From an uncultured Methanosarcinales archaeon (GTDB taxonomy: Archaea; Nanobdellota; Nanobdellia; Woesearchaeales; CAYSVS01), in assembly GCA_964589485.1 (NCBI GenBank), contig CAZPRK010000006.1, positions 1 to 64,000 on the forward strand: a stretch of DNA of 64,000 nucleotides. Direction: 5' to 3'. A program made the position numbers and the translations under genes. A model generated the notes under the pieces. That model was not told the DNA's origin and did not search any database. It saw only the letters and a list, made by a program, of their open reading frames with translations. How positions within the stretch are numbered: the first letter of the stretch is position 1; each line of letters begins with the position of its first letter. This document shows, in pieces, positions 3,915 through 38,821 of this stretch.

Positions 3915-3915
3915 T

Positions 3916-4101
3916 TTATTTTCCTCCAATATGGAATACAAATTTAATTAGGCCCATACCTGCACCTGCAAATAGCAATCCACAAATGAAAAATCTTCCT
4001 GGAAAAACTGGCACGGCAAATAAACTTATTATTCCCCCAACTAAAAATAGTCCTACAAATATTATTGCTTGTCCAAGCATATTTTGACCTTTCTTGTTCA
4101 T
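3916..4101 (-). CDS. Small two-TM protein beginning MNKKGQ, inserted between hsdS and hsdM
   Basis: ATGA overlap with hsdS stop, abuts hsdM start; hydrophobic. Confidence 0.65.
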   Translation of the reverse strand: MNKKGQNMLGQAIIFVGLFLVGGIISLFAVPVFPGRFFICGLLFAGAGMGLIKFVFHIGGK

Positions 4102-5279: not shown

Positions 5280-5659
5280 TTTTTACCCCCTAACATTGAG
5301 CTTGGAACAGGCACAGAATCTTTCTTTTTCTTTTTGATTATGTGTTCTCTTAGATCTAGCTCTTCTGTAATTGTTTTTTGTAATTGCTGCAAGTATCTTG
5401 CAGACATATTTTTGATAACTTCAACTTCTGTTTTATCATCAAGCAAGATGTTCCAGCTGAAATTATCCTTGTCCTTGTTGTAGTTGATTTTATTAGAACC
5501 TGCAACATGATGAGGTACTGAAACCTTGATCTCATTTAGCAACAAATCCCTAATTAATGAAGATGGAGTAATGCCTTTCTTTTTGCAATACTCATCTATT
5601 CTAGTGAACTCTTCTCTTGAGATTTTTGCTGATATTGATTTATATTCTGATACTCTCAT
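5276..5659 (-). CDS. RHH-domain protein with C-terminal extension
   Basis: N-terminus KSISAKISREEFTRIDEYCKKKGITPSSLIRDLL fits the beta-alpha-alpha RHH pattern; ATGA overlap with hsdS. Confidence 0.75.
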   Translation of the reverse strand: MRVSEYKSISAKISREEFTRIDEYCKKKGITPSSLIRDLLLNEIKVSVPHHVAGSNKINYNKDKDNFSWNILLDDKTEVEVIKNMSARYLQQLQKTITEELDLREHIIKKKKKDSVPVPSSMLGGKK

Positions 5660-5681
5660 GAAAATAGAAAAAGATAGCTAG

Positions 5682-5689
5682 TATATAAA
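5682..5689 (-). promoter_or_regulatory. Archaeal TATA box for the RHH-hsdS-hsdM operon (probably leaderless)
   Basis: TTTATATA centred about 26 nt upstream of ATG 5659. Confidence 0.65.
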
Positions 5690-5713
5690 GCTTGTGTGTC
5701 AACCAAGGTTGAC

Positions 5714-8491: not shown

Positions 8492-8618
8492 TTTTCATCT
8501 GTTTCTCCATCATTATCTCGAATTGCCTTGATACTAATAGGCCTTTCTTTTTACAAAATTGTCTATACTGATCATAGAGCTTTTCGTTAACTCTCAGAGT
8601 AATATTCTTTGATTCCAT
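8484..8618 (-). CDS. 44-aa RHH protein directly upstream of hsdR (not in ORF track)
   Basis: Hand translation MESKNITLRVNEKLYDQYRQFCKKKGLLVSRQFEIMMEKQMKND; overlaps the hsdR start by 8 nt; TATA upstream. Confidence 0.75.
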   Translation of the reverse strand: MESKNITLRVNEKLYDQYRQFCKKKGLLVSRQFEIMMEKQMKND

Positions 8619-8631
8619 TGTTTATAAACTA

Positions 8632-8655
8632 CAAATATACTCAAATGTATATAAA
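8632..8655 (-). promoter_or_regulatory. TATA box (8648-8655) and adjacent short direct repeat, candidate RHH operator
   Basis: TTTATATA on minus strand; caaatatac/caaatgtat repeat with 10-nt period between TATA and ATG 8618. Confidence 0.5.
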
Positions 8656-8752
8656 TATTACGCACTATATAAAAAAAATGCCAAAAAAATGTCACTTAAA
8701 GGAACATAAATCTCTTGTTTGCGTTCCAATGTGCCATTTTTCATAATGTTTT

Positions 8753-8923
8753 TCAGCGATTTTCTGCTGAATCTTGGTTTTTATGACATTTTTCTTTGGC
8801 CAAAATACGCCACTTTTTCTTCCTTAAAGTATCTGATTGAACTACTCCTTCAAAATTGTCATAGAGTACTTTTGGATCAGCTAGCTCTTCAAAATTCAAT
8901 TCATTCCATTTCTTTACTATCAT
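8753..8923 (-). CDS. Small hypothetical protein (56 aa)
   Basis: ATG 8923 preceded by GGTGA, directly after the upstream gene stop. Confidence 0.5.
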   Translation of the reverse strand: MIVKKWNELNFEELADPKVLYDNFEGVVQSDTLRKKKWRILAKEKCHKNQDSAENR

Positions 8924-8927
8924 TTTA

Positions 8928-9221
8928 TCACCAGTCCGTATCAATACCTTTGTCTTCAAGCTCTTTGTTGATCTGCTGGAGTTCCTTTTGGATTAGCAAG
9001 AATCTATCAACTATCTCTTGCTTTCTTCCAAGAAGCATTCTTTTCTTCGCATCTTCATAGCGAGGATCATTGATGAAATAGAATATGACCAGCTTTCGAA
9101 TCAATAATGACAGTTCATTATTTCCATTCTTCTTGACATAGTCTTCAACAATAGTTCTTGCTGGATTTCCTATTTCTCCGAAGTTTATTGTTCTTCTATC
9201 ATACTTCTTTGGCTTTCCCAT
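8928..9221 (-). CDS. Hypothetical protein, possible RHH-like N-terminus plus coiled coil
   Basis: ATG 9221 (MGKPKKY) with GGAG upstream; RRTINF...ELSLLIRKLV pattern. Confidence 0.6.
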   Translation of the reverse strand: MGKPKKYDRRTINFGEIGNPARTIVEDYVKKNGNNELSLLIRKLVIFYFINDPRYEDAKKRMLLGRKQEIVDRFLLIQKELQQINKELEDKGIDTDW

Positions 9222-9518
9222 TTCATAACTCCAATTAATACTCAACACTAACCTGATGAACAGGTATTGTTTTTCTATTATTTTCAAGCAAATTGCTTCG
9301 CAAATTGCATTTCTTTTTTAGACTTCAATCTATTGTTGAAATCTTTTTTCTTGGTTTTTTAGCGTCGAGTACCCCAAATTTAGGAGACTCAACATTGTTC
9401 CAAATTTTTTATTAACTTGCGTTATGAAGATTAATTGCATTCAAACGCAATAATTAAATAGAAGAAGCACTAACCTTTCTTTGGACAGATTGACTAGCGC
9501 CTCTTCCAGGTGCTTTTT

Positions 9519-9656
9519 TTATTCTTTGATACCACCTCCTGCTGCGTTGATTAATAATTCTCTAGTGTATTCAGAGATTCTGTTGTCTGACAGAAGCTTG
9601 ATCTTCTCAAACAACTCATTATCAATTCTGACAGTGATTCTAGCTCTCATCCCCAT
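9519..9656 (-). CDS. 45-aa RHH (CopG-like) protein (not in ORF track)
   Basis: Hand translation MGMRARITVRIDNELFEKIKLLSDNRISEYTRELLINAAGGGIKE; GAGGAG upstream. Confidence 0.75.
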   Translation of the reverse strand: MGMRARITVRIDNELFEKIKLLSDNRISEYTRELLINAAGGGIKE

Positions 9657-9715
9657 CTTGAGTCTCCTCACTATCTTCAATGATACTCCGAAGCATCCTG
9701 ATCCAATTTGGATAT

Positions 9716-9925
9716 TCAGGCAATTTCACCAGCTCCGTAGAGAATTACATACTGTGCTCTACCATGTTGTTCCACATCCAATATTTTGTGTTTCTTCAAG
9801 AATTTAACAGAGTCTCTGACCTGGTAGAAATTCAGCTTCAAAGCATCAGAAATAACTGTCAAACTCTTCTTTGGATTCTCTCCTACAAATTCTAGAACCC
9901 TCTCGCAGTTTTCAATTGTTGCCAT
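9716..9925 (-). CDS. Small winged-helix DNA-binding protein
   Basis: HTH plus wing (ILDVEQHGRAQYV); GGAGGT RBS. Confidence 0.75.
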   Translation of the reverse strand: MATIENCERVLEFVGENPKKSLTVISDALKLNFYQVRDSVKFLKKHKILDVEQHGRAQYVILYGAGEIA

Positions 9926-10152
9926 GTTATACCTCCGGTTGATTTACCATACGCCTAGTTCTCTAGGTCTTTCAATCGTATCGTATCTCATCTCGGAGGG
10001 ATTAGAAATCCGTCCAGTACAGAAGTAGGATAGTTAAAGGTTTATATAAATATTTTGCCAATAGAAACGCTGCAATACAGTATATCAATCCCTTCAATAT
10101 CTGAAGGAATGACAAGGTTTTTAAAATACGGCTACAAACCCACTAATAGCGT

Positions 10153-10273
10153 AGGCGCATTGGATTGTGCATCGAGAGCACGGCCGACGCATATTTTCAT
10201 TATTCTAATGCGCCAACAAAGACAGGTGCATACGATTGTAGACTGGCTGCACGGCCGGCGCATTTTTTCATAA
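10153..10273 (+). repeat. Imperfect ~50-bp direct repeat (period 71) containing tRNA-Gly-like 3' end; putative att site
   Basis: aggcgcattggattgt-N9-gcacggccgacgcatattttcatta versus aggtgcatacgattgt-N9-gcacggccggcgcattttttcataa; GC-rich relative to surroundings. Confidence 0.7.
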
Positions 10274-10305
10274 ATTATTTAAATAGTACTTTCTTAAACA
10301 TATAT

Positions 10306-10503
10306 ATGGCAGATGGTATTACAATATTAACTGAGTTAGTTCAAACTGTTTTAAATAGAGTAGAAGTTTTAGTTGGTGGTGTATTTGGACTTTATGTAAT
10401 ATACTTTATTTTTAGGATGTATGAAGTGAAGAAACAAAACAAAACTCTTGAAATTATTAAAAAGGATTTAAACTATTTGAAAAGAAAAATAAAAACTAAA
10501 TAA
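10306..10503 (+). CDS. Small single-TM protein with basic coiled tail
   Basis: ATG 10306 (MADGITIL) lies ~25 nt after TTTAAATA; the longer track ORF from 10165 runs through the att repeat. Confidence 0.65.
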   Translation: MADGITILTELVQTVLNRVEVLVGGVFGLYVIYFIFRMYEVKKQNKTLEIIKKDLNYLKRKIKTK

Positions 10504-10577: not shown

Positions 10578-12620
10578 ATGGGTTTAATATTTTATGTTAT
10601 GGGTACTGCAATATTAGCATTAATTTTTGCAGAGTTTTTAGTTTTAAAGATTAACAGGCAAAGTCCTGGAAATGATAAAATGCAAGAAATTGCTCTTGCT
10701 ATTAGAACTGGAGCAATGGCTTTTCTTAAGAGGGAATACAAAAATTTAGTGTGGTTTGTATTTTTATTGGCTTTAGTTTTAGGGTTTGCATTAGATAATC
10801 CTGAAACAAGTATCCAAGAAGGATGGTTAACATCTATTTCATTTTTAGTTGGAGCTTTTGGAAGTGCATTAGCAGGGTTTATTGGAATGAGTGTTGCAAC
10901 AAAAGCTAATGTAAGAACAGCTAATGCTGCTAAAAATCATGGATATAAAGCATTAGAAATTGCATTTAGTTCTGGAGCAGTTATGGGGTTAACTGTTGTT
11001 GGAATAGGTTTACTTGGTTTGTCAGTATTATATTATATTTTTAGTTCAGTTATGGGTTTAAGTACAGCAGCCTCTGCTAGTATATTAACTGGATTTGGTT
11101 TAGGAGCAAGTTCAATTGCTTTATTTGCAAGAGTTGGTGGTGGAATATTTACAAAAGCTGCTGATGTTGGTGCAGATTTAGTAGGAAAAGTTGAAGCAGG
11201 AATTCCTGAAGATGATCCAAGAAACCCTGCAGTAATTGCGGATAATGTAGGAGATAATGTTGGTGATGTAGCTGGAATGGGTGCTGATTTATATGAAAGT
11301 TATGTTGGGAGTATGATTGCATCAATGGCTTTAGGAGCAGTGTTCTTTGGGGTAAAAGGAGCAATTTTACCATTAGCTTTAGCAGCAGTAGGTATTTTAG
11401 CTTCAGTTATTGGAAGCTTTTTTGTTAGAGTTTCTGAAGAAGCTAAAGTTCATGGTGTGTTAAGAAAAGGATTATTATGGGCAACTGGAATTGTAATTGT
11501 AGTAAGTTATCCTTTAACAAAAATGTTATTACCTACACATTTTGTTGGAGTATATATTTCAATAATTACAGGGTTAATTGCCGGAGTTTTGATTGGTTTA
11601 ATAACAGAATATTATACTTCTGATCATTTTAAACCTGTAAAACGAATTGCAGAAGCTAGTAAGACTGGAAGTGCAACAAACATTATTGAAGGGTTAGCAA
11701 TTGGTTATATGAGTACTGCTTTACCTACTATAGTATTAGCTGTTGCAATATATTTAGCTTATTATTTTGCAGGTTTATATGGAATTGCAATTGCAGCTGT
11801 AGGAATGTTAAGTACATTGGGAATTAGTTTAGCTGTAGACGCATATGGTCCAGTTGCAGATAATGCTGGCGGAATTGCAGAAATGGCAGGATTACCAAAA
11901 AAAGTAAGAGAAATTACAGATGCTTTAGACAGTGCAGGAAATACAACTGCTGCTATTGGTAAAGGGTTTGCAATAGGTTCAGCTGCTTTAACAGCATTAG
12001 CGTTATTTAGTGCTTTTAGTCAAGTAGCAGGATTATCAAAAATTGATATCATGTCACCAATAGTTATGATTGGGTTATTATTAGGAGCAATGTTACCTTT
12101 TGTTTTCTGCGCATTAACAATGAATGCCGTTGGAAGAGCAGCTTTTAAAATGATTGAAGAAGTTCGAAGACAATTCAGAGAAATTAAAGGATTAATGAAA
12201 GGCGAAGCAAAAGCTGATCATGAAAAATGTGTAGATATTGCAACACAGGGAGCATTGAAAGAAATGGTTTTACCAGGTGTATTAGCTGTTCTTGTGCCTA
12301 TTCTAACAGGTTTAGCATTAGGTGTTGAAGCTGTAGGTGGATTATTAGCTGGAGCTTTAGTTGCTGGAGTTATGATGGCAATTTCAATGGCAAACTCTGG
12401 TGGAGCATGGGATAATGCTAAGAAATACATTGAAGCTGGCGCACATGGTGGAAAAGGAAGCGAACCTCATAAAGCTGCAGTTGTTGGTGATACTGTAGGT
12501 GATCCTTTCAAAGATACAAGTGGTCCAGCATTGAATATACTTATTAAATTGATGAGTATTGTTGCTTTAGTGTTTGTACCATTATTCTTAAAATATGGAC
12601 CTTGGCTTGTTTTAGGTTAA
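10578..12620 (+). CDS. hppA: Membrane-bound ion-translocating pyrophosphatase, K+-dependent, probably Na+-pumping
   Basis: [44 protein letters not shown] (Ala, K+-dependent type); GADLYESY. Confidence 0.96.
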
Positions 12621-12627
12621 TTTTTTT

Positions 12628-13950
12628 TTATATTTTATTTAAATATTTAACCATTGTTTTAATTCCCATTTCTGCTTGTTCTATTCTAAAATGTTCATTT
12701 GGTGCATGATAACCATCAGAAATTAAACTTTGTGCTATTAATACAATAGGTACTTTGAATTTAGTTTGTAATTTAGGAATTGCTCCTATTGTGCCTCCTG
12801 TTGCAACAAATAAAGCTTTTTTTCCAAAACCATATTCACAAGCTTCCTGTGCTTTTTTCATAAATTTATTATTTAGTTTTGTTACTGTTCCTTCGTTGCC
12901 TTCATTGAAAATGATTTCTATACCTTCATGAGTTTCTTTAAGAAAATGTTCTAATTTTTTAATTACATTTTTTGGATTTTGATCTGGAACAATTCTCATG
13001 CTAATTTTTGCATAAGCTTCATACGGAATGGCTGTTTTTATTCCTTGGTTTTCATTACTTTGTCCACCATAATATTCATGTATTTCAAAAGTAGGATTGT
13101 GAATTGCATTAATTATTTTCATTTTATCTTTAGTGTATAAATCACCTTCATATTGCATTTCTTCTTCATCTTTAGCTAATTCTTGAATTTCATCCATACC
13201 TGGCTTTATTACATCATCGTAAAATCCAGGAATTTTTATTTTTCCTTCTTTATCTAGGCAGTTTCCTAAAGCTTGGGATAAAATGTTAAACGGATTCATT
13301 GCTATGCCACCATAAACCCCTGAATGTAAATCTTTTTCATGGGTTTTTAGTTTAACTATGGCCCTTACTAAACCTCTTAATTTATATGTTATTGCAGGAG
13401 TATTTCCTTCAAATATAGTATCGCTAATTAGAATAGATTCTGGATTTTCTAAATTTGCTTTATCAAGAAATTCTTTGAAATTTTTACTTCCAATTTCTTC
13501 CTCGGTTTCGTAAATGATTTGTATGTTTGGTATATCTAATTTATTTTGTTTTAAGAAATTAATTGCATGGATGATTGTTAATGCAGGACCTTTATCATCG
13601 GTTGAACCTCTCCCGTATATTTTGTTATCTTTTTCTATTGCTTCAAATGGATTAGTTTCCCATTGAGGTTCATTCGCTGGTTGTACATCCATGTGATTGT
13701 ATATTGTAATCCAAGGTTTGTTTTTGTTTAGCTCTAATTTAGCCAATAAAACAGGGTTTCCTTTAGTTTCAATTATTTCACTGGTGAATCCAATTTCTTT
13801 TAATATTGATTCTGCTTTTTGTAATACTTTATGTAAATCAGAATGATGGTTTTTATCTTGACTAATGCTAGGAATTTCAATTAATGATTTTAATTGTTCT
13901 TTATATATAGGAATGTTAGCTTTAATGTATTCGTTTAATTGTTTGTCCAT
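12628..13950 (-). CDS. M20-family metallo-dipeptidase/deacylase
   Basis: HMDVQP, GRGSTDDKG, EEEIGS, HSG, HAPNE. Confidence 0.92.
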   Translation of the reverse strand: MDKQLNEYIKANIPIYKEQLKSLIEIPSISQDKNHHSDLHKVLQKAESILKEIGFTSEIIETKGNPVLLAKLELNKNKPWITIYNHMDVQPANEPQWETNPFEAIEKDNKIYGRGSTDDKGPALTIIHAINFLKQNKLDIPNIQIIYETEEEIGSKNFKEFLDKANLENPESILISDTIFEGNTPAITYKLRGLVRAIVKLKTHEKDLHSGVYGGIAMNPFNILSQALGNCLDKEGKIKIPGFYDDVIKPGMDEIQELAKDEEEMQYEGDLYTKDKMKIINAIHNPTFEIHEYYGGQSNENQGIKTAIPYEAYAKISMRIVPDQNPKNVIKKLEHFLKETHEGIEIIFNEGNEGTVTKLNNKFMKKAQEACEYGFGKKALFVATGGTIGAIPKLQTKFKVPIVLIAQSLISDGYHAPNEHFRIEQAEMGIKTMVKYLNKI

Positions 13951-16765: not shown

Positions 16766-17605
16766 ATGCGTTATTTTAACTTAGAAACAAGGAAAATAGA
16801 AGAATTAGGTTCGACTTTTATTATGCATAGAGCTCCATCTAGTATAATCTCAGTTTCTCCTCATGGTGGTGAACTTGTTCCATATGAGTTATTAGAACAA
16901 AGAATAATGAATTTGGAAAACCTTGAAGTAGTTAATGGACTTAGAAAAGACGGAGATATAGCTGCTAATGAAATTTATAAATTCAGTGAATTTAATTATT
17001 TAGCAAGTTTACTTCACAGGAATATATTTAATTTAAATAGACCAAGAGATGGTTGTATTATTGATAAAGCTTCAGATGGAACAAATTTATTAAAAAGACA
17101 ATATTTTTCAAGTGAAAAAGAAATGTTTGTAAGAATGTTTTACGATCCTTTTCATTCTGCATTAAATGAAATGATTAAATCTATTGATGGAAGAGTATTC
17201 TTATTAAATGGTCATTCAATGGAATCAAAAATTCCTAAAGAGCGACAAGATTATGAAGAGGGTATTAAGAGGCCAGCTTTTGGGTTTATGACAACCGATG
17301 GACTTTTAGTTGAAAGAAAAATAGTTAATACATTTATGGAATATATTGCGGATAATGCAGGACAGTTTTTTGATCTTCCTAAAGATATGGATATAATAGT
17401 AGAAGATAAACCTTACTCTATAGTTCCTGGTGGAATAAGTGAATTGTATGGTATGTCTGATGAAAGTACGGATTCAGGGTTATTAGAGATAAATAAACTA
17501 TTATATATGAATGAAGAAACTTTTGAAGTTGATATAAATAAAGTTCACTTATTAAACATATTAATAAAAGGAGCATTATTAGAAGTAGAAAAAATTTTGA
17601 ATTAA
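16766..17605 (+). CDS. N-formylglutamate amidohydrolase-family protein
   Basis: SPHGG, FYDPFH, LNGHSM, LEINKLLYMNE. Confidence 0.75.
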   Translation: MRYFNLETRKIEELGSTFIMHRAPSSIISVSPHGGELVPYELLEQRIMNLENLEVVNGLRKDGDIAANEIYKFSEFNYLASLLHRNIFNLNRPRDGCIIDKASDGTNLLKRQYFSSEKEMFVRMFYDPFHSALNEMIKSIDGRVFLLNGHSMESKIPKERQDYEEGIKRPAFGFMTTDGLLVERKIVNTFMEYIADNAGQFFDLPKDMDIIVEDKPYSIVPGGISELYGMSDESTDSGLLEINKLLYMNEETFEVDINKVHLLNILIKGALLEVEKILN

Positions 17606-19743: not shown

Positions 19744-19938
19744 ATGAAAGGTACTGTTAAATTTTTCAACAACGGAAAAGGATTTGGCTTCATATCTGGT
19801 GAAGATGGTAACGAATATTTCGTACATCAAACAGGTATTAATGAAGGAGTTCAATTAAATGAAAACGATTCTGTTGAATTTGAAGTAGAGCAAGGCGATA
19901 GAGGTCCAAAAGCTGTAAACGTAAGTAAAGAAGAATAG
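19744..19938 (+). CDS. cspA: Cold-shock domain protein
   Basis: GTVKFFN, KGFGFI (RNP1), YFVH (RNP2), GPKAVNV; GGAGGT RBS. Confidence 0.95.
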   Translation: MKGTVKFFNNGKGFGFISGEDGNEYFVHQTGINEGVQLNENDSVEFEVEQGDRGPKAVNVSKEE

Positions 19939-19942
19939 ATTT

Positions 19943-22258
19943 TTATCTTTTTTTACCCGAAATATAGATTTCCTCTTTAAGAAAACTTTTTTTCTTAGTA
20001 TATTCTACAGAAAATTTTTCTTTTTCAAATATTCTTTTTATTTCTTCTTTATTTTCAACAATTAATGCATTTGGTGTCATGTTTATGAATGAATGTTTAA
20101 TATAAAAACAATATCTACTGTTCTTTCGCATAACTTTTCGTAAATGATTAAGAAATTTAGGTATATCTGGAATATAACCTAATGAGTTTGATGAGAAAAA
20201 GTAATCTACATTTTTTATTTTATCTGGAATTTTCCATGATTTTCTATATTGGATATTTATTTTGTTTTCAAAACCTTTTGGAATATTTTTCTTAAACACT
20301 TTTATTTCTTCTTTAGCTTTATCTATTGCAAATATTTTTTTGAAATTGATTTTATTTTTAATTAATCTTTTTGTGAAGGCTCCTGTGCCACAGTCATAGT
20401 CTATAATGGTTGAGTTTCTTTTTAATTTTAGTAATTTAATAATACGATTAAAAATAGGTTTAGTGAAAGGGACTAAATGGTAGTGATGTGAAAATTTTGC
20501 CATAATATTTTTTCTAATTTCAACATATTTATTGTCATAGAACAGTTCTATTGCGAAATATGCAGGAATTCCGAAAGCTACCAACCCTGTAGATATTCTT
20601 AATATATCTAATGCACTATGTGTTTCTTTAATAAACATGTAAAGTAAAAATATCATAAAACCAATTGTAATTATTGGGCCTATTTTACCAAAAACAACTC
20701 TATAAGGTCTTTTTACTTCGGGTTGCTTAAACCTTAAAATAACTAAACTTAATAATACTGCAGAATAAACAATTAAAATTAAAGGAATTAGCATATGTAA
20801 AAGAGTTTCATAAGAGCCTGCTCCAACTATAACTAAGGCAGAAACTACGATTGCTTGGAATGCTATGGATATATAAGGACTCTTGTGTTTAGGATGGATC
20901 TTAGCGAATTGTGTAAAAAATAATTTATCTTCTGCAATTGACATTAATAGTCTAGGGGCAGTAACAATCCATCCAGCTGTTGCTCCTATTACTGAAATAA
21001 AAATTAATATACTAAATATTATTCCGCCAACTGCACCAAAATGTATTGCACCTAAATCTTTAAGTGGAGCTACTGAGTTTGCGAATTCACTCCAAGGAAT
21101 TGTTCCCATTGCAGTAAAGGCTAGTAAAAAGGATAAAATAGCTATAACTATTGTACCATATATTAATGCCTTAGGCATAATTTTAGTTGGGTTTTTTGTT
21201 TCAGCTGATAAAAAAATTGCACTTTCCCATCCAAAAAATGTTTCTGCAATAAAAAATATTGCCAATAGAACACTAGCTGTAGGAAAAACAAAAAATGGAT
21301 CGAAATTACTTGGATCAATATTAATTAGACCTGGAACTATAATAGCTATAACGGCTGTTAAAGTAATTAAAGCAAAGCTTACTAACATTACTGTTGATGT
21401 TTGCATTCCATTAAATGCAACGTAACTAAATAATAATATTAGGAATATTGCAATAGGAACATATGTATAAGAATATTTTATTGGAATTAAATATTGTAAA
21501 GCTCCAAGAAGTAGCATGGCAATTGTAACACTTCCTGCAATAGAGGTTGTCCAACCTATAACAAAAGACCAAAACCGTCCATATGCTTGTTTAGCGAATT
21601 CATATACTCCTCCAGCTTTTGGAAACATTGCGGTTAATTCTGCGAAACACATTGCTATATAAACTGAAATTAAAGATAGAATTCCCCATGAAATTAATGA
21701 AGCTGGACCTGCATGTTTTGCTCCAGCTGAAGTAAGAAACCAAATTCCAGTACCCATAATTGAGTTAATAGTTATTAATAAAATTACTTTAAAACTTAAT
21801 GTTTTATTCATTTCCTTCTCGTGAGGTTGAACTTTTCTTATTTTTGTTTCTTTAATGTGTTTTCTGAACCTAATAAATCTGGGAGCTCTTGTTCCAAACC
21901 TAAGTAATCTTAAAAATCTAGAATATCTAGCTAACCTTGCAATTCTTGTTAAAATTTTTATTCCTCTGAATGCTCTTATTAATGTTAACCCTTCAATGCC
22001 TAAAAATATTAAATTAAAAGGAATAGTGGCTATTATGTCTAGAAAATGTTTTTTTAAATAAGGAATTAATTGAGGTGTTTCAAACCATCTGTAATATAAG
22101 TCTATTGCGAATATAATAATAACATAAATATCGAAAACGTCAATAAAAAAAGACATTGCTTTTCCGACGCCATAAAAAAGTTCAATGATTGTAACAACCA
22201 AAAGTAAAACTAAAGATGGTGGAATTAATAATTGTATTAACTTATCTAACTTTTTCAT
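19943..22258 (-). CDS. Fusion: voltage-sensor domain + APC amino-acid permease + methyltransferase-fold domain
   Basis: aa1-132 S1-S4 with periodic Arg; aa~153-575 APC motifs (MGTGIW, FAEL..FPKAGG.Y, FFGWE..AETKNP); aa~600-771 IIDYDCGTG. Confidence 0.88.
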   Translation of the reverse strand: MKKLDKLIQLLIPPSLVLLLVVTIIELFYGVGKAMSFFIDVFDIYVIIIFAIDLYYRWFETPQLIPYLKKHFLDIIATIPFNLIFLGIEGLTLIRAFRGIKILTRIARLARYSRFLRLLRFGTRAPRFIRFRKHIKETKIRKVQPHEKEMNKTLSFKVILLITINSIMGTGIWFLTSAGAKHAGPASLISWGILSLISVYIAMCFAELTAMFPKAGGVYEFAKQAYGRFWSFVIGWTTSIAGSVTIAMLLLGALQYLIPIKYSYTYVPIAIFLILLFSYVAFNGMQTSTVMLVSFALITLTAVIAIIVPGLINIDPSNFDPFFVFPTASVLLAIFFIAETFFGWESAIFLSAETKNPTKIMPKALIYGTIVIAILSFLLAFTAMGTIPWSEFANSVAPLKDLGAIHFGAVGGIIFSILIFISVIGATAGWIVTAPRLLMSIAEDKLFFTQFAKIHPKHKSPYISIAFQAIVVSALVIVGAGSYETLLHMLIPLILIVYSAVLLSLVILRFKQPEVKRPYRVVFGKIGPIITIGFMIFLLYMFIKETHSALDILRISTGLVAFGIPAYFAIELFYDNKYVEIRKNIMAKFSHHYHLVPFTKPIFNRIIKLLKLKRNSTIIDYDCGTGAFTKRLIKNKINFKKIFAIDKAKEEIKVFKKNIPKGFENKINIQYRKSWKIPDKIKNVDYFFSSNSLGYIPDIPKFLNHLRKVMRKNSRYCFYIKHSFINMTPNALIVENKEEIKRIFEKEKFSVEYTKKKSFLKEEIYISGKKR

Positions 22259-28729: not shown

Positions 28730-31700
28730 CTATATAGTTGGTTTTTCAGGCATTACTCTAGATTTTGAATTAGATACTTGATTTGCACCGCATAAAACCC
28801 AAGCACCTTGGTAAGGATCTGCATTTACTTTTTGAATTAATGAAGGTTTACTCCATGTTCCATTGTATAACCAAATTTTCTTAACACTATTTTGACAAGC
28901 ATTAACAACAAATTTATTATCGTCTAATATCGAATCTAAAGTTACTAAATTCCAACCGTCACTTAAGTCAGAATGTTTTACAGATGATTGCATATGTAAA
29001 TCAATTGAGCAACCTTCCTTTGCTAAAATCCAAAACCCAAGACCACTATTGATAGTTAGTGGATTCTTTTGCCAAGTTCCATTATAACTCCATACTTTGT
29101 TACATTTTTCAGAAATTTGAATTTGGGTTGGTTGATTTGCTCCGAATAAATTCCATCCTGCTTTTAGGTTTTTAGTTATTACACCAGAAGAATCTAAAGC
29201 TTGAATATCAATATTTTCATTAACACAATCATTGTCTTTATCACATACTGTTAATTTAGCGACATAATTTCCTTCAGAATAAGTATGTATAATTGAAGCT
29301 TCTGAATAGTCTTCAACTCCATCATTATCTATATCCCAGGAATAAGTATAAGGTGAATCACCGCTTGTTATATCGGAAGTAAAAGTAACTTCTAGAGGAG
29401 CTATGCCTGATGTTTTATCTGCGTTAATACTTAACGAAGGTATTAAATTAGTATTAACGATTATGCTTACGTTTTTAGTAACACAATCATTATCTTCATC
29501 ACAAACAGTTAATTTAGCAATATAATCTCCATCTTCTGTGTAAGTGTGAGTTACATCTTCCTCTTGGAAATCTGAATTTCCATCATTATCAATATCCCAT
29601 GAATATGTTAAAGTTCCATCTCCGCTAGATGTTGTAGCATCAAAATTAACTTCTAATGGAGCTTCTCCTGAATTTACATTAGTATCTATATTTAAAGTAG
29701 GTATTAAGTTTGATTCAACTACTATATTTACACTTTTTGAAACACAATCATTATCTTCATCACAAACTCTTAGAGAAGGTATGTAAGACCCAGCTTTAGT
29801 ATAAGTGAAAGTTATATCATCTTGTTGAAAATCTGTATCACTATCGTTATTTATATCCCATGAATATGTAAGAATTCCATCTCCACCAGATGCAGTTGAA
29901 TCAAAAGCTACTTCTAACGGAGCTTCTCCTGAAACTATATTTGAACTTATACTTAAACTTGGAACTAAGTTAGTATTAACAAATACATCTAGACTTTTTG
30001 AAATACATTCATTATCAGCATCACACATTGTTAATTTAGGTCTGAAGAATCCTTCTTCAGTGTAAGTGTGACTAATGTTTTCAGTATTATAATCTTCGAC
30101 GTCATCACCATTAATGTCCCATGAGTATGCTAAATTACCGTCACCTGTGCCTTCACTATCTATATTGATAGTAAATGGAGCTTTACCTAATGTGTTATCT
30201 GATAATAGTTCAAGAGTAGGTATTTTATTACCAGTTACAATTAATTCTATTGTTTTTTCATCACAATCATTATCTGCATCGCATAATCTTAATCTTGCAT
30301 TATAAATTCCACTTTCACTGTATGTATATGTAACTAAATCTTGAGTAAATTCAAGGTCACCATCGTTAGTCATATCCCATTCATAGAATACTGGAGTGTT
30401 TGCTGTAATAACATTTGCACTAAATGAAACTTCTAAAGGTGCATCACCTGTTATTTTATCTGCAACAATTTCAAAATCAATATCTGCTTCATCTTGAACA
30501 AATAATCTTTCAGTATCAGTTACGCATACTTGTGAAGAATCACAAACTTTTAATGCAATCATTGTATCTATAGAAAATCCATATGATAATTCAAATGAAC
30601 TATCTTCGAAGTCAACAAATTCATCTCCATTTAAGTCCCATTCATAAGTATATGGACCATTTCCTCCAGTAACTATTGATTCAAATTTAACATCCGATGG
30701 ATGGAAAATATTGCTATAAGTTAAATTAATTTGAGCTAATAATTCACTTTCATCTATTGCAGTAATATTTATTGTATCATTAACACAATCATTATCTTTA
30801 TCACAAACTGTTAATTTTGCTACATAGTTATTTTTTTCGGTGTATATATGAGTTATGTTTGCATTATTAAAATCTTCTACTCCGTCATTGTCAATGTCCC
30901 ATGAATAAGTTAATGGAAAATTTCCTCCTGTAACTTTTGATTTAAAATTAACTTCTAATGGAATTCTTCCTTGGTCTTTATCTGAACTAATACTTAGAGT
31001 TGGACTAAGATCTTCTTCATTTACTGTTATAGTTATATTTTCAGTAAGACAAGTACTACTATCACATGCAGTTAAAATTGTCATATATTCTCCTGTTTCA
31101 TTAAAAGTATGAGTAATACTATTTTCATTGCTTTCAATATGTCCATCATCATTCATGTCCCATATATATACATAAGGCGGACTTCCTCCTGCAATTATTG
31201 AATTAAAATTAACGGTTAATGGAGAATCTCCTGAATTTTTATCTGTTTCAATAGCAAGTGATAATATATCATCTATGGTAATTGATTTTTGTAAAGTTAT
31301 TGCATTACCTTCTGTTGGGGTTACTGTTACACTAATATCATGTGTTCCAACAGAAAATTCTTGAGTTGGATCTTTACTAGTATTTCCAAAACTCCAATCG
31401 TATGTAAATGGACCACGACCTACACATTCTAAATTAAAGTTAACAGTTTGTTGATTTTGAGTTGTACTTAAATCACAATTAATTTGATCTAATGTTTCAT
31501 TCTTAGTAACAGTTATTTCTATTAAACTAGCATCAACGTCTCCTTCTGAGTCAGTTGCAATAACGATTATTTCATAAAAACCTTCATATAATATTGTATC
31601 AAAACTTTTTTCTGTAAAATCTATAGTATCATCATCATCAAAATACCATTCATATGTTATTTCACCATTTCCTGTATTAGATATTTCATCAAAATGTATA

Positions 31701-33982
31701 TGTAAAGGTTCAATGCCTGAAGTTACATTTGCAAAAATTACCGGGGAAGGGACAGTGTTAGCTTGTGCTATAATTTCTACTATAGAATTTTTACATAGAC
31801 TTTGATCACAAACAGTTAATGTTGAATTAAAATTTCCAGCTTCTGTAAATGTATGTGACGGGTTTTCTATAGTGTAATCTTCCACTCCATCATTATCTAC
31901 ATCCCATGAATAAGTATACGGAGCATTTCCTTCAATTATATTTGATGTGAATTGAACTTCTGAAGGTAAAGGATATAATGTTTGTTTATCTGCAGAAGTT
32001 TCAATGATTAAATCATTGAATACTGAAATGTTTACTTTACTAGTAACTTCAATATCTTTGGCATCTGTAACAGTTAAAGTGACTTCATGTAACCCAAGAG
32101 TAAATGTATGGTTTATTATTTGTGATGAAGCATCTTCTATTCCATCATTATCAAAGTCCCATGAATATGTTAATGGAAGTTTTCCTCCAGTTGTTTGTGC
32201 AATGAACTCAACTTCTAAGTTTGGTTTGCCATTAGTTGAACTGGTTAATATATTTGCTTCAGGTAATGAATAAGATTGTATTGAAAATGTATGTGTTAAA
32301 GTATCTGAGTTATTGAATTCGTCTTTACATGTAATTGGAAGGTTATAAGTTACTCCATCTTGTACGTTAAATTGAGTAAGGTGATTTAATCCGTTAGATG
32401 TAAAAAATACTTTTTCATTTTCAAAAGTATAACTACAATTTGCATTTTCATCAGTTAGTGCTGTAATATTTACAATATCTATTGGAAGTAATTCACCTAT
32501 AGGAGAAGTTATTAGTAATTCAGGTGCGTATATATCTTTATTTCTACTAAATACATTATTTGTTTCATTAGTTTCTTCAATTTCATTATTATTGTCAATA
32601 ATTACAAAAATAGAATCTGTATCATTAATTTTAACATCTTCAAATCTTAATGAATAAGATGAATTAATTAGTGGAATGACAATACTATCTAATAATTCAA
32701 AATTATCATCGAAAACTTCAACACTAACGCTATAAGCTTCTATTCCCATATTTTTAATTTCAATATCTATTCCAGTAAAATCAGAAGTATAATCATCTAA
32801 ACTAATATTATTAATATTTAATTCAGGAAGGGATGGAGCTACAAATTGGTTGTATAAATAAGTGTTTGTAGTGTAATCATCAGTTACTGAGTCTAATACT
32901 GTTTCGTTTTTTAATATTTTAACATAACTTAATACATAAGGTCCAGATAATTTTGAATTATATATTGTTTCTCCATCAATTACGAAATCTATAGCGTTAG
33001 TTCCTAGATTTAAGTTATAACTTTTATCAATATCTTCAATGAAATTCCCATAGGAATCGTGTAAAGCTGATTTGAATTGATATTCTCCTGATTCATTTGT
33101 TTCTATTTCGATTGAAATAGTTAAATTATTGATTTTATCTGAAATGTTTTGAATATCTTCTTGATAATTGTTAGTTAATATTGTTTTCTTTGGATCAAAT
33201 TCTTGTTTTTGGAATTCTCCAAGGAATGAATTTAACTCGTAATTATATGTTACTTCAGATGTTTCTATTGTTACTGAAGATAGATTGATTTTACCTCTTA
33301 AATTATTATCTCTGATTACTTCAGAATCAAAAAGTAATGTGAAATCTTGACTTTGTGAAGTTTGTTGCGTAAAAGCAGAAGTATCATTATCACCTGTTAA
33401 ATATCCAAATATTGTAACTTCTTCGTTGATAGTTGAGTCTAAATTTATGTGAGCAGCTAGGTAGTCTAACCTTGAATCTGATTCATTGTTTATAGCTTCG
33501 CTTGTAATACCTGTAATTTTTATTTCTCTTGGTTCTAATTCATTTATGTCAAACGTAACTAAATGATTTTTATCTTCCCTTAAAACTAATGTTGCATTTT
33601 CAAATATTTTTAATGAAAAATTATATGTATAATTTTCTAATGATTTAGCTTTAAATGGAAAATTAATTGTATTTTGTCCAAGAATTAATTCTTGATTTAA
33701 GGAAATTGATTGTACAACTATATCATTGTAACTGAGTTCTCCTATTAAATCATAAGTTTTTGCATCTGAATTTAAATTTACACTTATAATTAAATTATCA
33801 AATAATGAATTTGCATTTGTATCTTCACCAGTTGTAGTATAATCAATTACACTTAATTCTTCAACTGAATAATCGTAGTCGTAAGTTGCAAGTAAATCTT
33901 CAATTGTTACAGCATTTACCGCAGACATAGATACAACTAGTAAAAACAAATACACAATCCAATTTGATTTAATTTTATTCAT
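28730..33982 (-). CDS. 1750-aa secreted surface protein: CARDB-like domain, about 12 PKD repeats, C-terminal GWNL repeats
   Basis: Signal peptide; NEIEETNETNN; repeated G.APLEV.F...YSWDIDNDG...LTVCD.DNDC; LKAGWNL and LSDGWNL. Confidence 0.9.
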   Translation of the reverse strand: MNKIKSNWIVYLFLLVVSMSAVNAVTIEDLLATYDYDYSVEELSVIDYTTTGEDTNANSLFDNLIISVNLNSDAKTYDLIGELSYNDIVVQSISLNQELILGQNTINFPFKAKSLENYTYNFSLKIFENATLVLREDKNHLVTFDINELEPREIKITGITSEAINNESDSRLDYLAAHINLDSTINEEVTIFGYLTGDNDTSAFTQQTSQSQDFTLLFDSEVIRDNNLRGKINLSSVTIETSEVTYNYELNSFLGEFQKQEFDPKKTILTNNYQEDIQNISDKINNLTISIEIETNESGEYQFKSALHDSYGNFIEDIDKSYNLNLGTNAIDFVIDGETIYNSKLSGPYVLSYVKILKNETVLDSVTDDYTTNTYLYNQFVAPSLPELNINNISLDDYTSDFTGIDIEIKNMGIEAYSVSVEVFDDNFELLDSIVIPLINSSYSLRFEDVKINDTDSIFVIIDNNNEIEETNETNNVFSRNKDIYAPELLITSPIGELLPIDIVNITALTDENANCSYTFENEKVFFTSNGLNHLTQFNVQDGVTYNLPITCKDEFNNSDTLTHTFSIQSYSLPEANILTSSTNGKPNLEVEFIAQTTGGKLPLTYSWDFDNDGIEDASSQIINHTFTLGLHEVTLTVTDAKDIEVTSKVNISVFNDLIIETSADKQTLYPLPSEVQFTSNIIEGNAPYTYSWDVDNDGVEDYTIENPSHTFTEAGNFNSTLTVCDQSLCKNSIVEIIAQANTVPSPVIFANVTSGIEPLHIHFDEISNTGNGEITYEWYFDDDDTIDFTEKSFDTILYEGFYEIIVIATDSEGDVDASLIEITVTKNETLDQINCDLSTTQNQQTVNFNLECVGRGPFTYDWSFGNTSKDPTQEFSVGTHDISVTVTPTEGNAITLQKSITIDDILSLAIETDKNSGDSPLTVNFNSIIAGGSPPYVYIWDMNDDGHIESNENSITHTFNETGEYMTILTACDSSTCLTENITITVNEEDLSPTLSISSDKDQGRIPLEVNFKSKVTGGNFPLTYSWDIDNDGVEDFNNANITHIYTEKNNYVAKLTVCDKDNDCVNDTINITAIDESELLAQINLTYSNIFHPSDVKFESIVTGGNGPYTYEWDLNGDEFVDFEDSSFELSYGFSIDTMIALKVCDSSQVCVTDTERLFVQDEADIDFEIVADKITGDAPLEVSFSANVITANTPVFYEWDMTNDGDLEFTQDLVTYTYSESGIYNARLRLCDADNDCDEKTIELIVTGNKIPTLELLSDNTLGKAPFTINIDSEGTGDGNLAYSWDINGDDVEDYNTENISHTYTEEGFFRPKLTMCDADNECISKSLDVFVNTNLVPSLSISSNIVSGEAPLEVAFDSTASGGDGILTYSWDINNDSDTDFQQDDITFTYTKAGSYIPSLRVCDEDNDCVSKSVNIVVESNLIPTLNIDTNVNSGEAPLEVNFDATTSSGDGTLTYSWDIDNDGNSDFQEEDVTHTYTEDGDYIAKLTVCDEDNDCVTKNVSIIVNTNLIPSLSINADKTSGIAPLEVTFTSDITSGDSPYTYSWDIDNDGVEDYSEASIIHTYSEGNYVAKLTVCDKDNDCVNENIDIQALDSSGVITKNLKAGWNLFGANQPTQIQISEKCNKVWSYNGTWQKNPLTINSGLGFWILAKEGCSIDLHMQSSVKHSDLSDGWNLVTLDSILDDNKFVVNACQNSVKKIWLYNGTWSKPSLIQKVNADPYQGAWVLCGANQVSNSKSRVMPEKPTI

Positions 33983-34256
33983 TGTATCTTAAGTAAAGTT
34001 TCCTCGCAATTAAACCTAATAGGAATCCTAATAGGAAGTAGAATATAGCTGAAAAAAAAATTAATAAGAACCCAGGTAAAGTTGAACCTATCATGTTTTG
34101 TATTTGTAACCCTGGTAGTAAAGGTATTAAACCAAATACGAAGCCTAAAAAACCAGCATTAGCAGTATTAAAAATAAATAAATATAATATTGCAATTAAA
34201 ATAATTACTAAACTTCCTCCATATAATCCCCATTTCATATAGTTTTTATCTAACAT
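33975..34256 (-). CDS. Small multi-TM membrane protein
   Basis: ATG 34256 (MLDKNY) with GGAGAGGTG RBS; overlaps both neighbours. Confidence 0.72.
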   Translation of the reverse strand: MLDKNYMKWGLYGGSLVIILIAILYLFIFNTANAGFLGFVFGLIPLLPGLQIQNMIGSTLPGFLLIFFSAIFYFLLGFLLGLIARKLYLRYNE

Positions 34257-38746: not shown

Positions 38747-38821
38747 GTAACCCCCACATGTTGGTAAATAACCTTGTTTTATAAAACTTACCCACAATTT
38801 ATGAAAGCAGGTGCCTAAAAA

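Follow-up and report, generated by a model that had tools for sequence, protein, structure and literature searches.

A candidate voltage-regulated amino-acid transporter in an uncultured archaeon: an S1–S4 voltage-sensor domain joined to an APC carrier and a methyltransferase fold

Analysis of a 64,000-nucleotide stretch of archaeal DNA (hereafter, the window) revealed a gene for a 771-aa protein composed of three parts: an S1–S4 voltage-sensor domain (VSD, aa 1–134), an APC transporter (aa 156–590) and a class I methyltransferase fold (aa 600–771). We consider it somewhat better than an even bet that this protein is a voltage-sensor-coupled amino-acid transporter. Nutrient transport in this small archaeon may accordingly be under the direct control of the membrane voltage. 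The gene occupies positions 19943..22258 of the window, stop codon included, and starts with ATG. An initial annotation of the window, made from the letters alone, had described a single unbroken ORF here; our analysis confirmed this and added the strand, which is minus for the gene and for all of its parts given below. The gene is monocistronic, with a cold-shock-domain gene (19744–19938, plus strand) convergent and a HIT gene (22356, plus strand) divergent to it. The same window encodes an H+-pyrophosphatase (E 3.6e-282), a source of membrane potential. The full-length AlphaFold2 model reached a pLDDT of 90.7 and a pTM of 0.89. As members of the family are currently annotated solely as 'amino acid permease', standard annotation does not reveal the sensor.

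The N-terminal 134 residues are an S1–S4 VSD homologous to the sensors of Kv and HCN channels, which matched this region best in both sequence and fold. A single-sequence phmmer search of the PDB returned the KvAP VSD (1ors_C, E 9.3e-5, query aa 7–118), and a search with a family profile matched KvAP at E 6.4e-6. The 60 matches listed for this profile also included Kv4, HCN, Kv2.1, Kv1.x, Shaker and hERG and consisted of such channels throughout, save two acetylcholine-receptor entries (E 0.029); the HCN matches covered profile positions 69–147, where S3 and the long S4 lie. As anticipated in the initial annotation, AlphaFold2 folded the N-terminus into a four-helix bundle with helices at aa 2–29, 33–60, 64–94 (kinked) and 101–134. 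Every Foldseek match listed for this model was a VSD-bearing channel, none of them at E ≤ 0.001, and the best were the KvAP structures 2kyh (probability 1.00, TM 0.56/0.59) and 1ors (TM 0.63, rmsd 4.0, 124 columns). Of the Pfam families expected for the three parts, those of the transporter and the tail were found, but Ion_trans (PF00520) did not match the window copy, whether the whole protein (E ≤ 1) or aa 1–154 alone (E ≤ 10) was scanned. Because Ion_trans was detected at E ≤ 0.1 in the N-termini of 18 of the 37 family members scanned (best 2.1e-6) and the PDB searches agreed, we did not count this miss against the VSD assignment.

All residues that had been named as sensor hallmarks were found. 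S1 (aa 2–29, 22172..22255), a DSSP helix in the AlphaFold2 model, bears E26 near its outer end, a residue kept in 31 of 33 aligned sequences. S2 (aa 33–60, 22079..22162), likewise helical in the model, contributes D43, F50, D53 and R57, all invariant across the alignment (33/33); these are proposed to form the charge-transfer centre and to supply counter-charges. S3 (aa 64–94, 21977..22069) comprises helices S3a (aa 64–77) and S3b (aa 81–94) and features D74 and an IATIPF motif with P80; position 74 is occupied by D in 30 of the 33 sequences and by E in the other three, and P80 is present in all. S4 (aa 95–134, 21857..21976; modelled helix 101–134) carries twelve R/K residues, mostly at every third position (95, 98, 101, 105, 108, 111, 114, 117, 120, 124, 127 and 130). 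Each of these positions is R/K in 26–33 of the 33 sequences; the conservation of S4 charges and counter-charges among homologues, on which the initial reading depended, was thus borne out. With acidic residues on S2 and S3 and an aromatic residue on S2, the domain has the counter-charges and hydrophobic plug expected of a VSD. KvAP also aligns at the acidic counter-charges of S2 and S3, at the proline of S3 and at the arginines of S4. In the HMMER alignment, D43, D53, R57 and D74 stand opposite D, D, R and E, and P80 opposite Pro. The initial annotation had likened F50, D53 and D74 to the Kv gating-charge-transfer centre (F233/E236/D259 of Kv1.2-2.1); in the comparison made, which was with KvAP, F50 pairs with Leu.

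The S4 segment is unusual in its length and charge. The usual number of basic residues in an S4 is four to six, as in Kv and HCN channels, compared with twelve in the archaeal protein. Among 116 relatives, the fraction of S4 basic residues followed by another basic residue was 0.67 at offset +3 and 0.52 at +6, compared with 0.12–0.28 at offsets 1, 2, 4, 5 and 7, indicating a pattern beyond chance. The segment from S4 to the linker varies from 52 to 86 aa among relatives, and the length offset from the window copy is a multiple of three in 104 of the 116, showing that the R-x-x register is kept. These data bear on the possibility that the bundle derives from a VSD but is voltage-insensitive and serves the transporter in another way, as a structural element, a lipid anchor or an oligomerisation module. 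VSD-like S1–S4 bundles without voltage sensing are known, for example in TRP channels. Compatible with such a role, the window copy falls below Ion_trans detection, and S3b–S4 is the lowest-confidence stretch of both the N-terminal and the full-length model (pLDDT 52–74; 62–74 across S4 in the latter). Moreover, the 21 core positions that set the VSD clade apart from its paralogues are scattered over TM1, 3, 4, 5, 7, 9, 10, 11, 12 and loops and mark no docking surface, so that a VSD–transporter coupling surface was not identified from them. On the other hand, a structural module needs neither twelve R/K held in register through insertions and deletions nor an invariant D43/F50/D53/R57 set with a near-invariant D74. 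Purifying selection on the VSD is, furthermore, comparable to that on the transporter core, with dN/dS values of 0.02–0.34 for the VSD and 0.02–0.11 for the APC core in the 15 closest pairs, rough figures because dS was close to saturation (0.6–1.4). We therefore regard a voltage-insensitive bundle as unlikely, if well worth keeping in view.

A voltage sensor without a pore had been proposed, and both Pfam and motif searches corroborated this. No pore-domain or Ion_trans family matched anywhere in the protein, and no G[YFL]G selectivity-filter motif (TVGYG in the initial annotation) occurs in its 771 residues. Unlike in Kv and HCN channels, S4 is followed by neither an S4–S5 linker nor the S5–P–S6 pore of voltage-gated channels; instead, a 21-residue linker leads to TM1 of the APC core. 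The resulting topology is self-consistent, with the N-terminus, the end of S4, the start of TM1 and the tail all inside. Since the S4 helix is modelled over aa 101–134, its lower part must reach into the cytoplasm.

Pore-less VSDs outside classical channels include Hv1, which conducts protons itself, and the voltage-sensing phosphatase VSP, in which S4 is directly attached to a soluble enzyme, as outlined in an excerpt of a 2024 review (PMC13095418). With these precedents, and given that the archaeal protein does bear an enzyme-fold tail, the VSD might be functional without gating the carrier, either by conducting protons or other ions (Hv1-like or through an omega pore), in which case its current would feed or short-circuit coupled transport, or by controlling the tail in a VSP-like manner. 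The same excerpt states that Hv channels are absent from bacteria and archaea (PMC13095418). In the archaeal protein, S1 has no mid-membrane Asp, E26 being its sole acidic residue, and S4 (aa 95–134) has no Trp. The hallmarks of Hv1, namely a mid-S1 aspartate as selectivity filter and an R-x-W-R-x-x-R motif in S4, are thus absent at the level of sequence. As to VSP-like control, the archaeal S4 runs into a 12-helix carrier, the entire 435-residue transporter lies between S4 and the tail, and the SAM-binding motif of the tail is degenerate in 70 of 113 relatives, whereas the VSD is kept in all complete members. Finally, the most conserved junction of the protein is that between S4 and TM1. A sensor working independently of the carrier is for these reasons improbable, and we return to the reading in which it gates transport.

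The basic linker that connects S4 and TM1 (aa 135–155, 21794..21856) includes K136 and Q144-P145-H146-E147, with the sequence ...RKVQPHE towards its end. K136, P145, H146 and E147 are present in 33/33 sequences and Q144 in 32/33. Mean pairwise identity within the same alignment decreases from the linker (0.70) over S1–S3 (0.62) to the tail (0.43). M150 of the linker marks the place where VSD-less paralogues begin. The following LeuT-fold, SLC7-like core (aa 156–590, 20489..21793) was assigned by Pfam, phmmer and Foldseek, in line with the complete APC permease that had been expected downstream of the sensor. AA_permease_2 matched aa 154–541 (E 3.5e-47; 161.7 bits, cutoff 27), whereas phmmer retrieved BasC (6f2g, E 3.8e-31), GkApcT (6f34, E 1.5e-24) and LAT1 (E 4e-22). 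Across BasC, LAT1 (SLC7A5), GkApcT and AdiC, matches to the core ranged from E 3.8e-31 to 1e-16 and TM 0.80–0.86, with the Foldseek match to BasC 9h76_A at E 1.9e-18 and TM 0.85. The characteristic G-[ST]-G and G-x-E motifs are present in TM1 (NSIMGTGI) and TM6 (ETFFGWES). An invariant Thr of the archaeal family (T299) aligns opposite a BasC Lys, presumably the conserved TM5 Lys. None of the four reference transporters contains a VSD or a methyltransferase tail. NCBIfam equivalogs gave no match past cutoff, the best being TIGR00909 (187.5 versus 556.8 bits), with BcaP at 143.5 versus 690. When the full model was searched with Foldseek, NKCC1/NCC (677–730 columns) and KimA (541 columns) aligned over both transporter and C-terminal alpha/beta domain, at low TM (0.38–0.63) and rmsd of 10–18 Å; these proteins differ in having no VSD and C-terminal domains of a fold other than that of methyltransferases.

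The initial annotation had named a chimeric join as a concern, and the same ORF could in principle be two genes, one for a VSD and one for a transporter, run together by a lost stop codon or a frameshift. Such a read-through is conceivable since, at three loci (L012, L015 and L018), the gene immediately upstream of the transporter, in the same orientation, encodes a stand-alone VSD. At these loci, however, the fused gene retains a VSD of its own besides the stand-alone one. Furthermore, the same unbroken architecture was found in 119 other protein clusters at 90% identity (61–79% identity, 79–100% coverage). The fusion is contiguous in 50 of 54 VSD-form loci, from 50 species-level archaeal genomes that include single-cell assemblies, and the remaining four loci end at contig edges. 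Since the three-domain join recurs across so many independent assemblies, it is not an assembly chimera. Together with the invariant junction residues and a composition without a break along the gene, this effectively refutes the reading as an artefact. The relatives carry Woesearchaeota or Nanoarchaeota labels, and the earlier guess of a DPANN origin therefore fits. In the phylogeny, the 32 VSD forms grouped as one clade (UFBoot/SH-aLRT 100/100) nested within VSD-less APC–methyltransferase paralogues, which points to a single origin. We thus envisage that a stand-alone VSD gene may have been fused once onto an existing APC–methyltransferase transporter in Woesearchaeota-type archaea. One further candidate, locus L064, gave a tblastn match from query aa 107, but its gene starts at locus position 5160 with a sugar-kinase-like gene upstream, and it was therefore assigned to the forms without a VSD.

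The cytosolic C-terminal domain (aa 600–771, 19946..20461) has a class I, Rossmann-type methyltransferase fold, as had been supposed. This assignment was obtained with Pfam (Methyltransf_31, aa 613–718, E 7.1e-10; 39.2 bits versus a cutoff of 27; Methyltransf_25, 28.2 versus 27; Methyltransf_11, 26.9 versus 21.2), with the SAM-dependent methyltransferase 3dh0 from the PDB (E 8.7e-5) and with the structural model, in which seven beta strands and intervening helices take turns (pLDDT >90). The canonical glycine-rich SAM-binding motif I is E/D-x-G-x-G-x-G, and 3dh0 reads D-V-G-T-G-A-G at this place. In the window copy, motif I is DYDCGTG, with the first Gly replaced by Asp. Among the 113 of 120 relatives that were classified for this motif, 43 had a similar sequence and 70 had lost it (e.g., Y-N-S-S-M-G). 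With a motif that is non-canonical here and degenerate in most relatives, the tail need not be an enzyme; a regulatory or ligand-sensing role is more probable for it than an indispensable catalytic one. A link to the methionine S-methyltransferase MmtN of Woesearchaeota was considered and dropped; the excerpted text of PMC9135737 mentions neither a permease nor a fusion.

How might the three parts work together? Carriers of the LeuT fold open their cytoplasmic gate by a swing of the inner half of TM1. A change in membrane potential would shift S4 across the membrane field, and since S4 is tied to TM1, whose swing opens the gate, this shift would be expected to bias the equilibrium between outward- and inward-facing states through the short tether and so to switch transport on or off. 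Most likely, S4 motion would thus act via the conserved 21-residue linker on TM1 and gate transport by voltage. We may guess that the carrier is permissive while the membrane is energised and locked when the potential collapses; locking would retain the stored amino acids in a cell unable to make them. Both this polarity and the closing upon de-energisation or detachment of a symbiont, which the initial annotation had suggested, are points that we only infer.

The closest analogue of the archaeal fusion is SLC9C1, the sperm Na+/H+ exchanger, a transporter gated by its own VSD via a very long S4, as described in an excerpt of PMC10620092. Like the archaeal protein, SLC9C1 is a secondary transporter to which an S4-type VSD is covalently attached; it, too, lacks a pore and has a very long S4 reaching into the cytoplasm as well as an additional cytosolic domain of regulatory type (excerpts of PMC10620092 and PMC13095418). 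It differs in being a metazoan exchanger of the CPA/NHE fold, in which the VSD comes after the transporter and the extra domain binds cyclic nucleotides (PMC13095418, in part). The archaeal protein, by comparison, combines a LeuT-fold carrier with an N-terminal VSD that leads into TM1 and a methyltransferase-fold domain, and neither a CNBD nor an NHE family was found in its Pfam scan. The two proteins are not of the same family and share no common ancestry as fusions; by analogy, they may nevertheless work alike. Another parallel is offered by mammalian Slc7a5 (LAT1) and Kv1 channels, where swapping the VSD controls the sensitivity of Kv1.1 and Kv1.2 to Slc7a5 (PMC7690953, in part). In both cases an SLC7-type APC transporter is partnered with a VSD of Kv type, which the archaeal protein joins covalently; in mammals the partners are separate proteins and the transporter acts on the channel (excerpt of PMC7690953).

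In openly licensed PMC papers and bioRxiv preprints, we found no description of an APC transporter with an attached VSD. In its excerpted part, the 2024 voltage-sensor review names no prokaryotic case (PMC13095418), and direct voltage control of transport has so far been described for one animal transporter only. A second, independent VSD–transporter fusion, on a different carrier fold, from archaea and with S4 wired straight to TM1, would indicate that electromechanical coupling is a portable solution rather than a one-off. It would also offer a small microbial protein for studying sensor-driven alternating access, bear on the origin of pore-less VSDs and suggest how genome-reduced, amino-acid-importing symbionts guard their pools when membrane energy fails.

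Related stand-alone genes for pore-less VSDs adjoin the transporter in 12 of 80 loci. At locus L002, a stand-alone VSD gene (locus positions 7725–8279) neighbours a VSD-less paralogue (8371–10413) transcribed divergently from it. A tentative and rather doubtful idea is that pore-less sensors are general, modular regulators of DPANN nutrient carriers, with the fused protein being gated and the unannotated stand-alone VSDs acting as voltage-sensing trans subunits of its VSD-less paralogues. If true, this would be the first voltage-gated amino-acid transporter from a prokaryote and also the first built on the LeuT fold. The fusion would serve as a 'Rosetta stone' by which hidden VSD–transporter complexes could be recognised as a class, and it would echo the mammalian Slc7a5–Kv1 VSD interaction. 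Among 890 candidates, no longer protein containing the stand-alone VSD was retrieved at E ≤ 0.001, which is weak evidence. In the ESM Atlas, the clusters nearest to aa 1–140 scored 0.86, under the 0.9 line, and serve as a lead only. A search with aa 1–140 among shorter proteins gave 23 matches, mostly same-family fragments of high identity from short contigs; the permease domain is present as well in many of these. One of the short proteins, P0287 (166 aa, 48% identity), might be distinct from these same-family fragments.

The fused gene (19943..22258) is, as the initial annotation had proposed from the sequence alone, a single unbroken ORF that encodes 771 aa; it lies on the minus strand and begins with ATG. 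The residues named there as hallmarks of an S1–S4 voltage-sensor domain (VSD) all occupy the expected positions, namely E26, D43, F50, D53, R57 and D74 together with the basic S4 residues (R/K at 95, 98, 101, 105, 108, 111, 114, 117, 120, 124, 127 and 130). The proposal of a sensor without a pore was borne out as well, since no G[YFL]G motif occurs anywhere in the 771-aa protein and a Pfam scan of the whole protein returned no pore family. Behind the linker, Pfam recovered both the predicted APC permease (AA_permease_2, aa 154–541, E 3.5e-47) and the Rossmann-type tail, where class I methyltransferase families match aa 613–718 (Methyltransf_31, E 7.1e-10, above cutoff). The gene is monocistronic, convergent with a cold-shock-domain gene and divergent from two HIT-family genes, and its GC content (0.23–0.33) is similar to that of its surroundings. 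The three-part anatomy of VSD, carrier and tail is confirmed with high confidence.

The N-terminus was examined by sequence and structure searches. Pfam Ion_trans, the family suggested initially, failed to match the window copy, either as a whole protein or as aa 1–154 alone; it did match 18 of 37 family N-termini scanned singly (E ≤ 0.1, best 2.1e-6). A phmmer search of aa 1–154 against all PDB chains had as its top match the KvAP voltage sensor in isolated form (1ors_C, E 9.3e-5; query aa 7–118 versus chain 7–121), followed by other KvAP entries, the Kv1.2–2.1 chimera, Kv2.1 and hERG, and the weak matches included taurine-transporter rows (E 0.3–0.7). In this alignment KvAP presents D, D, R, E and P opposite D43, D53, R57, D74 and P80, its first three S4 arginines opposite R95, R98 and K101, and Leu opposite F50. 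With a profile built from 37 family N-termini and six stand-alone relatives, KvAP reached E 6.4e-6, and the 60 matches listed were VSD-bearing channels (Kv4.2/4.3, HCN1/3/4, Kv2.1, Kv1.2/1.3, Shaker, hERG) except for two acetylcholine-receptor rows (E 0.029); the HCN matches span S3 and the long S4. Structure prediction agreed with the proposed four-helix VSD: the AlphaFold2 model of aa 1–156, computed from the same alignment, contains four helices (pLDDT 73.5), and the matches listed by Foldseek against the PDB were channel voltage sensors only, although none reached E ≤ 0.001. The best was KvAP 2kyh (E 2.5e-3, prob 1.00, TM 0.56/0.59), and KvAP 1ors gave TM 0.63 on the target (rmsd 4.0, 124 columns). 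A full-length model from a 90-row alignment (pLDDT 90.7, pTM 0.89) showed S1–S3a at pLDDT 82–94, the S3b–S4 stretch at only 62–74, and S4 as one helix (aa 101–134). Because phmmer, the family profile, the Ion_trans matches of relatives, the N-terminal model with Foldseek and the full-length model agree, we identify this region as a VSD.

Residue conservation was analyzed in 33 full-length relatives (61–76% identical). D43, F50, D53, R57 and P80 show no variation, 31 of the 33 have E26, and at position 74 Asp stands in 30 and Glu in three. Conservation of the basic S4 residues among homologues, on which the initial reading depended, was found at all twelve positions, each being R/K in 26–33 of 33 sequences with misses that are mostly gaps. 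Both anchor motifs occur in 116 of 120 listed family proteins; of the four pattern misses, one starts within S4 and the other three visibly share the S1/S2 sequence at their start. Across the 116 relatives the S4-to-linker segment carries 12–23 basic residues (median 19), with a dominant +3 spacing (0.67 versus 0.12–0.28 at offsets 1, 2, 4, 5 and 7). This segment measures 52–86 aa, and its length differs from the window copy by a multiple of three in 104 of the 116, a count of related sequences rather than of 104 independent events; indels have tended to gain or lose whole R-x-x turns. S4 itself (aa 95–134, window 21857–21976, minus strand) is polymorphic in length in three-residue steps (see proteins P0093 and P0115), the longest segment being that of P0093 with ~24 extra residues including more basic ones, and the number of R-x-x turns seems tunable. 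Mean pairwise identity is highest in the carrier (0.75), followed by the linker (0.70), S1–S3 (0.62), S4 (0.59) and the tail (0.43). Nei–Gojobori estimates from 36 coding sequences (30 pairs with dS <1.5) gave, for the 15 closest pairs, rough dN/dS values at dS 0.6–1.4 of 0.02–0.34 for the VSD, 0.02–0.11 for the carrier and 0.06–0.60 for the tail. Beside this record, a module that descends from a VSD and is blind to voltage appears unlikely, if well worth weighing.

A word-indexed search listed 119 other 90%-identity clusters among its matches (61–79% identity, 79–100% coverage); those that have a name at all are called amino acid permease, APC family permease, basic amino acid/polyamine antiporter or hypothetical protein. 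A scan limited to a single genome for each species yielded 202 relatives; 80 loci were kept. The VSD form was present in 54 of the 80, with sensor and carrier contiguous in 50 (three of them cut at the 3′ end) and four cut by contig ends. This recurrence at one genome per species marks the VSD–carrier join, for which a chimera had been a concern, as genuine; the probability that the three-domain ORF is an artefact is negligible. The other 26 loci encode APC+methyltransferase paralogues lacking the VSD (40–48% identity; 58% in the partial locus L070). Their matches begin near query aa 149, apart from one cut by a contig start and one spurious extension, and their start Met aligns at M150, which agrees with a gene having been fused onto an older start codon. 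Both forms occur in one single-cell assembly (L037 and L057). In L001, L002, L005, L017 and L045 the VSD form is immediately preceded by a VSD-less paralogue (~46% identity), and in all of these but L045 a third paralogue (29–32% identical) follows downstream, as exemplified by the tandem array of L002 (3069–4949, 4992–7325, 8371–10416). In an exhaustive search of 50%-identity representatives, query aa 1–150 were covered by only three of the matches listed, two of them fragments and one P0115; the 147 further matches listed start at query aa 124 or later, and many extend through the methyltransferase tail. Our searches met no description of the APC+methyltransferase fusion as such, which is widespread. 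In a maximum-likelihood tree of carrier and tail only (VSD columns excluded; 90 rows chosen from search matches; rooted on 15 plain APC carriers), all 32 VSD-form rows fell on one side of a branch (UFBoot/SH-aLRT 100/100, 100% of 200 bootstrap trees), nested among VSD-less APC+methyltransferase rows. The VSD–carrier join is real and arose once. By depositor label, the 54 loci belong to Woesearchaeota (24), Nanobdellota (6), Methanobacteriota (21) or no phylum (3). All 21 Methanobacteriota-labelled loci (L001, L003, L006 and 18 others) are titled 'uncultured Methanosarcinales', a third-party assembly label; over the matched stretch their proteins share 59–84% identity with proteins of Woesearchaeota/Nanoarchaeota bins, and the label looks like a placeholder or misassignment.

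A separate small VSD-like gene, without pore or carrier, lies near the transporter in 12 of the 80 loci; none was found in the window. One type measures 176–250 aa and is often divergent from a paralogue. The other (295–332 aa, His-rich N-terminus) immediately precedes the fused gene, in the same orientation, in L012 (4764–5753, plus), L015 (4794–5789, plus) and L018 (235–1119, plus). Further copies occur on the minus strand in L002 (7725–8279), L003 (4105–4755), L005 (7761–8333), L009 (3–410), L013 (4294–4899), L014 (4363–4890), L017 (7320–7883) and L071 (6897–7547), and on the plus strand in L023 (4438–5034). All 12 are unannotated. An alignment of eleven shows the S1 Glu retained, along with D/F/D in S2 and Asp and Pro in S3; Ion_trans fell just below cutoff in four of four scanned with Pfam (E 1.6e-5 to 2.8e-3), and profile–profile comparison with the fused sensors (hhalign) gave a probability of 99.2% (E 1.5e-19, 134 columns). 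One adjoins unannotated ESM Atlas clusters of 148, 78 and 123 members (scores 0.93–0.94), mainly from Woesearchaeota and Nanobdellota. The stand-alone VSDs may serve as voltage-sensing subunits in trans. The ESM Atlas clusters nearest to aa 1–140 of the fused protein are 110–133 aa 'Ion transport domain' proteins of CPR bacteria (Saccharimonadota, Minisyncoccota; score 0.86), which hints, as a lead only, that mini pore-less VSDs may also occur in ultra-small bacteria.

The carrier is closest by sequence to BasC (E 3.8e-31), then GkApcT (1.5e-24) and LAT1 (4e-22), and it reached no NCBIfam equivalog cutoff. By fold (Foldseek), BasC, LAT1, GkApcT, AdiC, y+LAT1 and Asc-1 were closest (TM 0.79–0.86), so that both structures initially put forward for comparison, GkApcT and AdiC, were among them. 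T299 (~21362–21364, minus strand), an invariant Thr of the family, stands opposite a Lys in the BasC alignment that we take to be the conserved TM5 Lys of BasC, reported as the proton or Na2-mimic site in ApcT; with this replacement, the coupling mechanism may differ from that of the closest solved relatives. The tail (19946–20461, minus strand) has a class I methyltransferase fold according to Pfam, model and PDB match. Its motif I (within aa 613–630) is non-canonical in the window copy (DYDCGTG); among 113 classified relatives (P0003–P0120) the motif is lost in 70 and a similar one kept in 43. This loss points to a tail that would act as pseudo-enzyme or ligand sensor in the majority of members, and we infer a regulatory or ligand-binding module for which catalysis would be dispensable in most of them. 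In L016 (4980–7565; P0035, 858–861 aa) an extra ~85-aa C-terminal tail, extremely Lys/Arg-rich, follows the methyltransferase fold.

From the model helices and the known topology of both folds, a self-consistent arrangement can be argued in which S1 would start inside, S4 end inside, TM1 of the carrier start inside and the tail be cytosolic. The modelled S4 helix is 34 residues long and must therefore project below the membrane; TM1 begins 21 residues after S4, past an invariant QPHE, and the linker is more conserved than S1–S4 and the tail, and less so than the carrier core. Outputs of the VSD other than carrier control seem improbable next to this wiring. Opening of the inner gate in LeuT-fold carriers involves movement of the cytoplasmic half of TM1, and for this reason we propose that voltage-driven S4 displacement would pass via the short linker to TM1 and shift the alternating-access equilibrium. 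A membrane H+-translocating pyrophosphatase is encoded ~7 kb from the transporter gene (10578–12617, plus strand; Pfam H_PPase E 3.6e-282), which gives the cell at least one means of energising its membrane, and this enzyme is a plausible source of the potential for the sensor to read. If carriers shut on collapse of the potential, the amino acids already imported would be protected. Functional voltage control of transport is the reading we favour, with moderate confidence.

In SLC9C1, as reported, a very long S4 restrains the transport domains via an attached intracellular helix, and hyperpolarisation moves S4 down and releases this restraint (PMC10620092). The fused protein may work alike, SLC9C1 being a precedent of principle, but it differs in carrier fold, domain order, accessory domain and lineage and is no member of that family. 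Lacking a pore, it is not a voltage-gated channel, nor is it Hv1-like by sequence. Mammalian Slc7a5 modulates Kv1 channels through their VSD, as one study reports (PMC7690953), an intriguing pairing of the same two folds, which is a parallel only. Searches of CC-licensed PMC full texts and bioRxiv preprints turned up no account of a VSD fused to an APC carrier, and we rate the protein as a putative voltage-sensor-coupled transporter whose carrier fold, wiring and domain of life are new.

Elsewhere in the window, a type I restriction-modification system (hsdM, hsdS, hsdR; 2430–8491, minus strand) adjoins an integrase fragment (90–893, plus strand). Two giant surface proteins, one with PKD repeats (1750 aa) and one with CARDB (1515 aa), are encoded at 28733–38797 (minus strand); proteins of this kind are characteristic of DPANN cells attached to a host. 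M20 and M17 aminopeptidases, an S51 peptidase and an N-formylglutamate amidohydrolase-like gene all lie within the 64 kb (12631–13950, minus; 42341–43828, minus; 46589–47371, plus; 16766–17602, plus), a set of peptidase and amino-acid salvage genes consistent with a lifestyle on imported amino acids and peptides.
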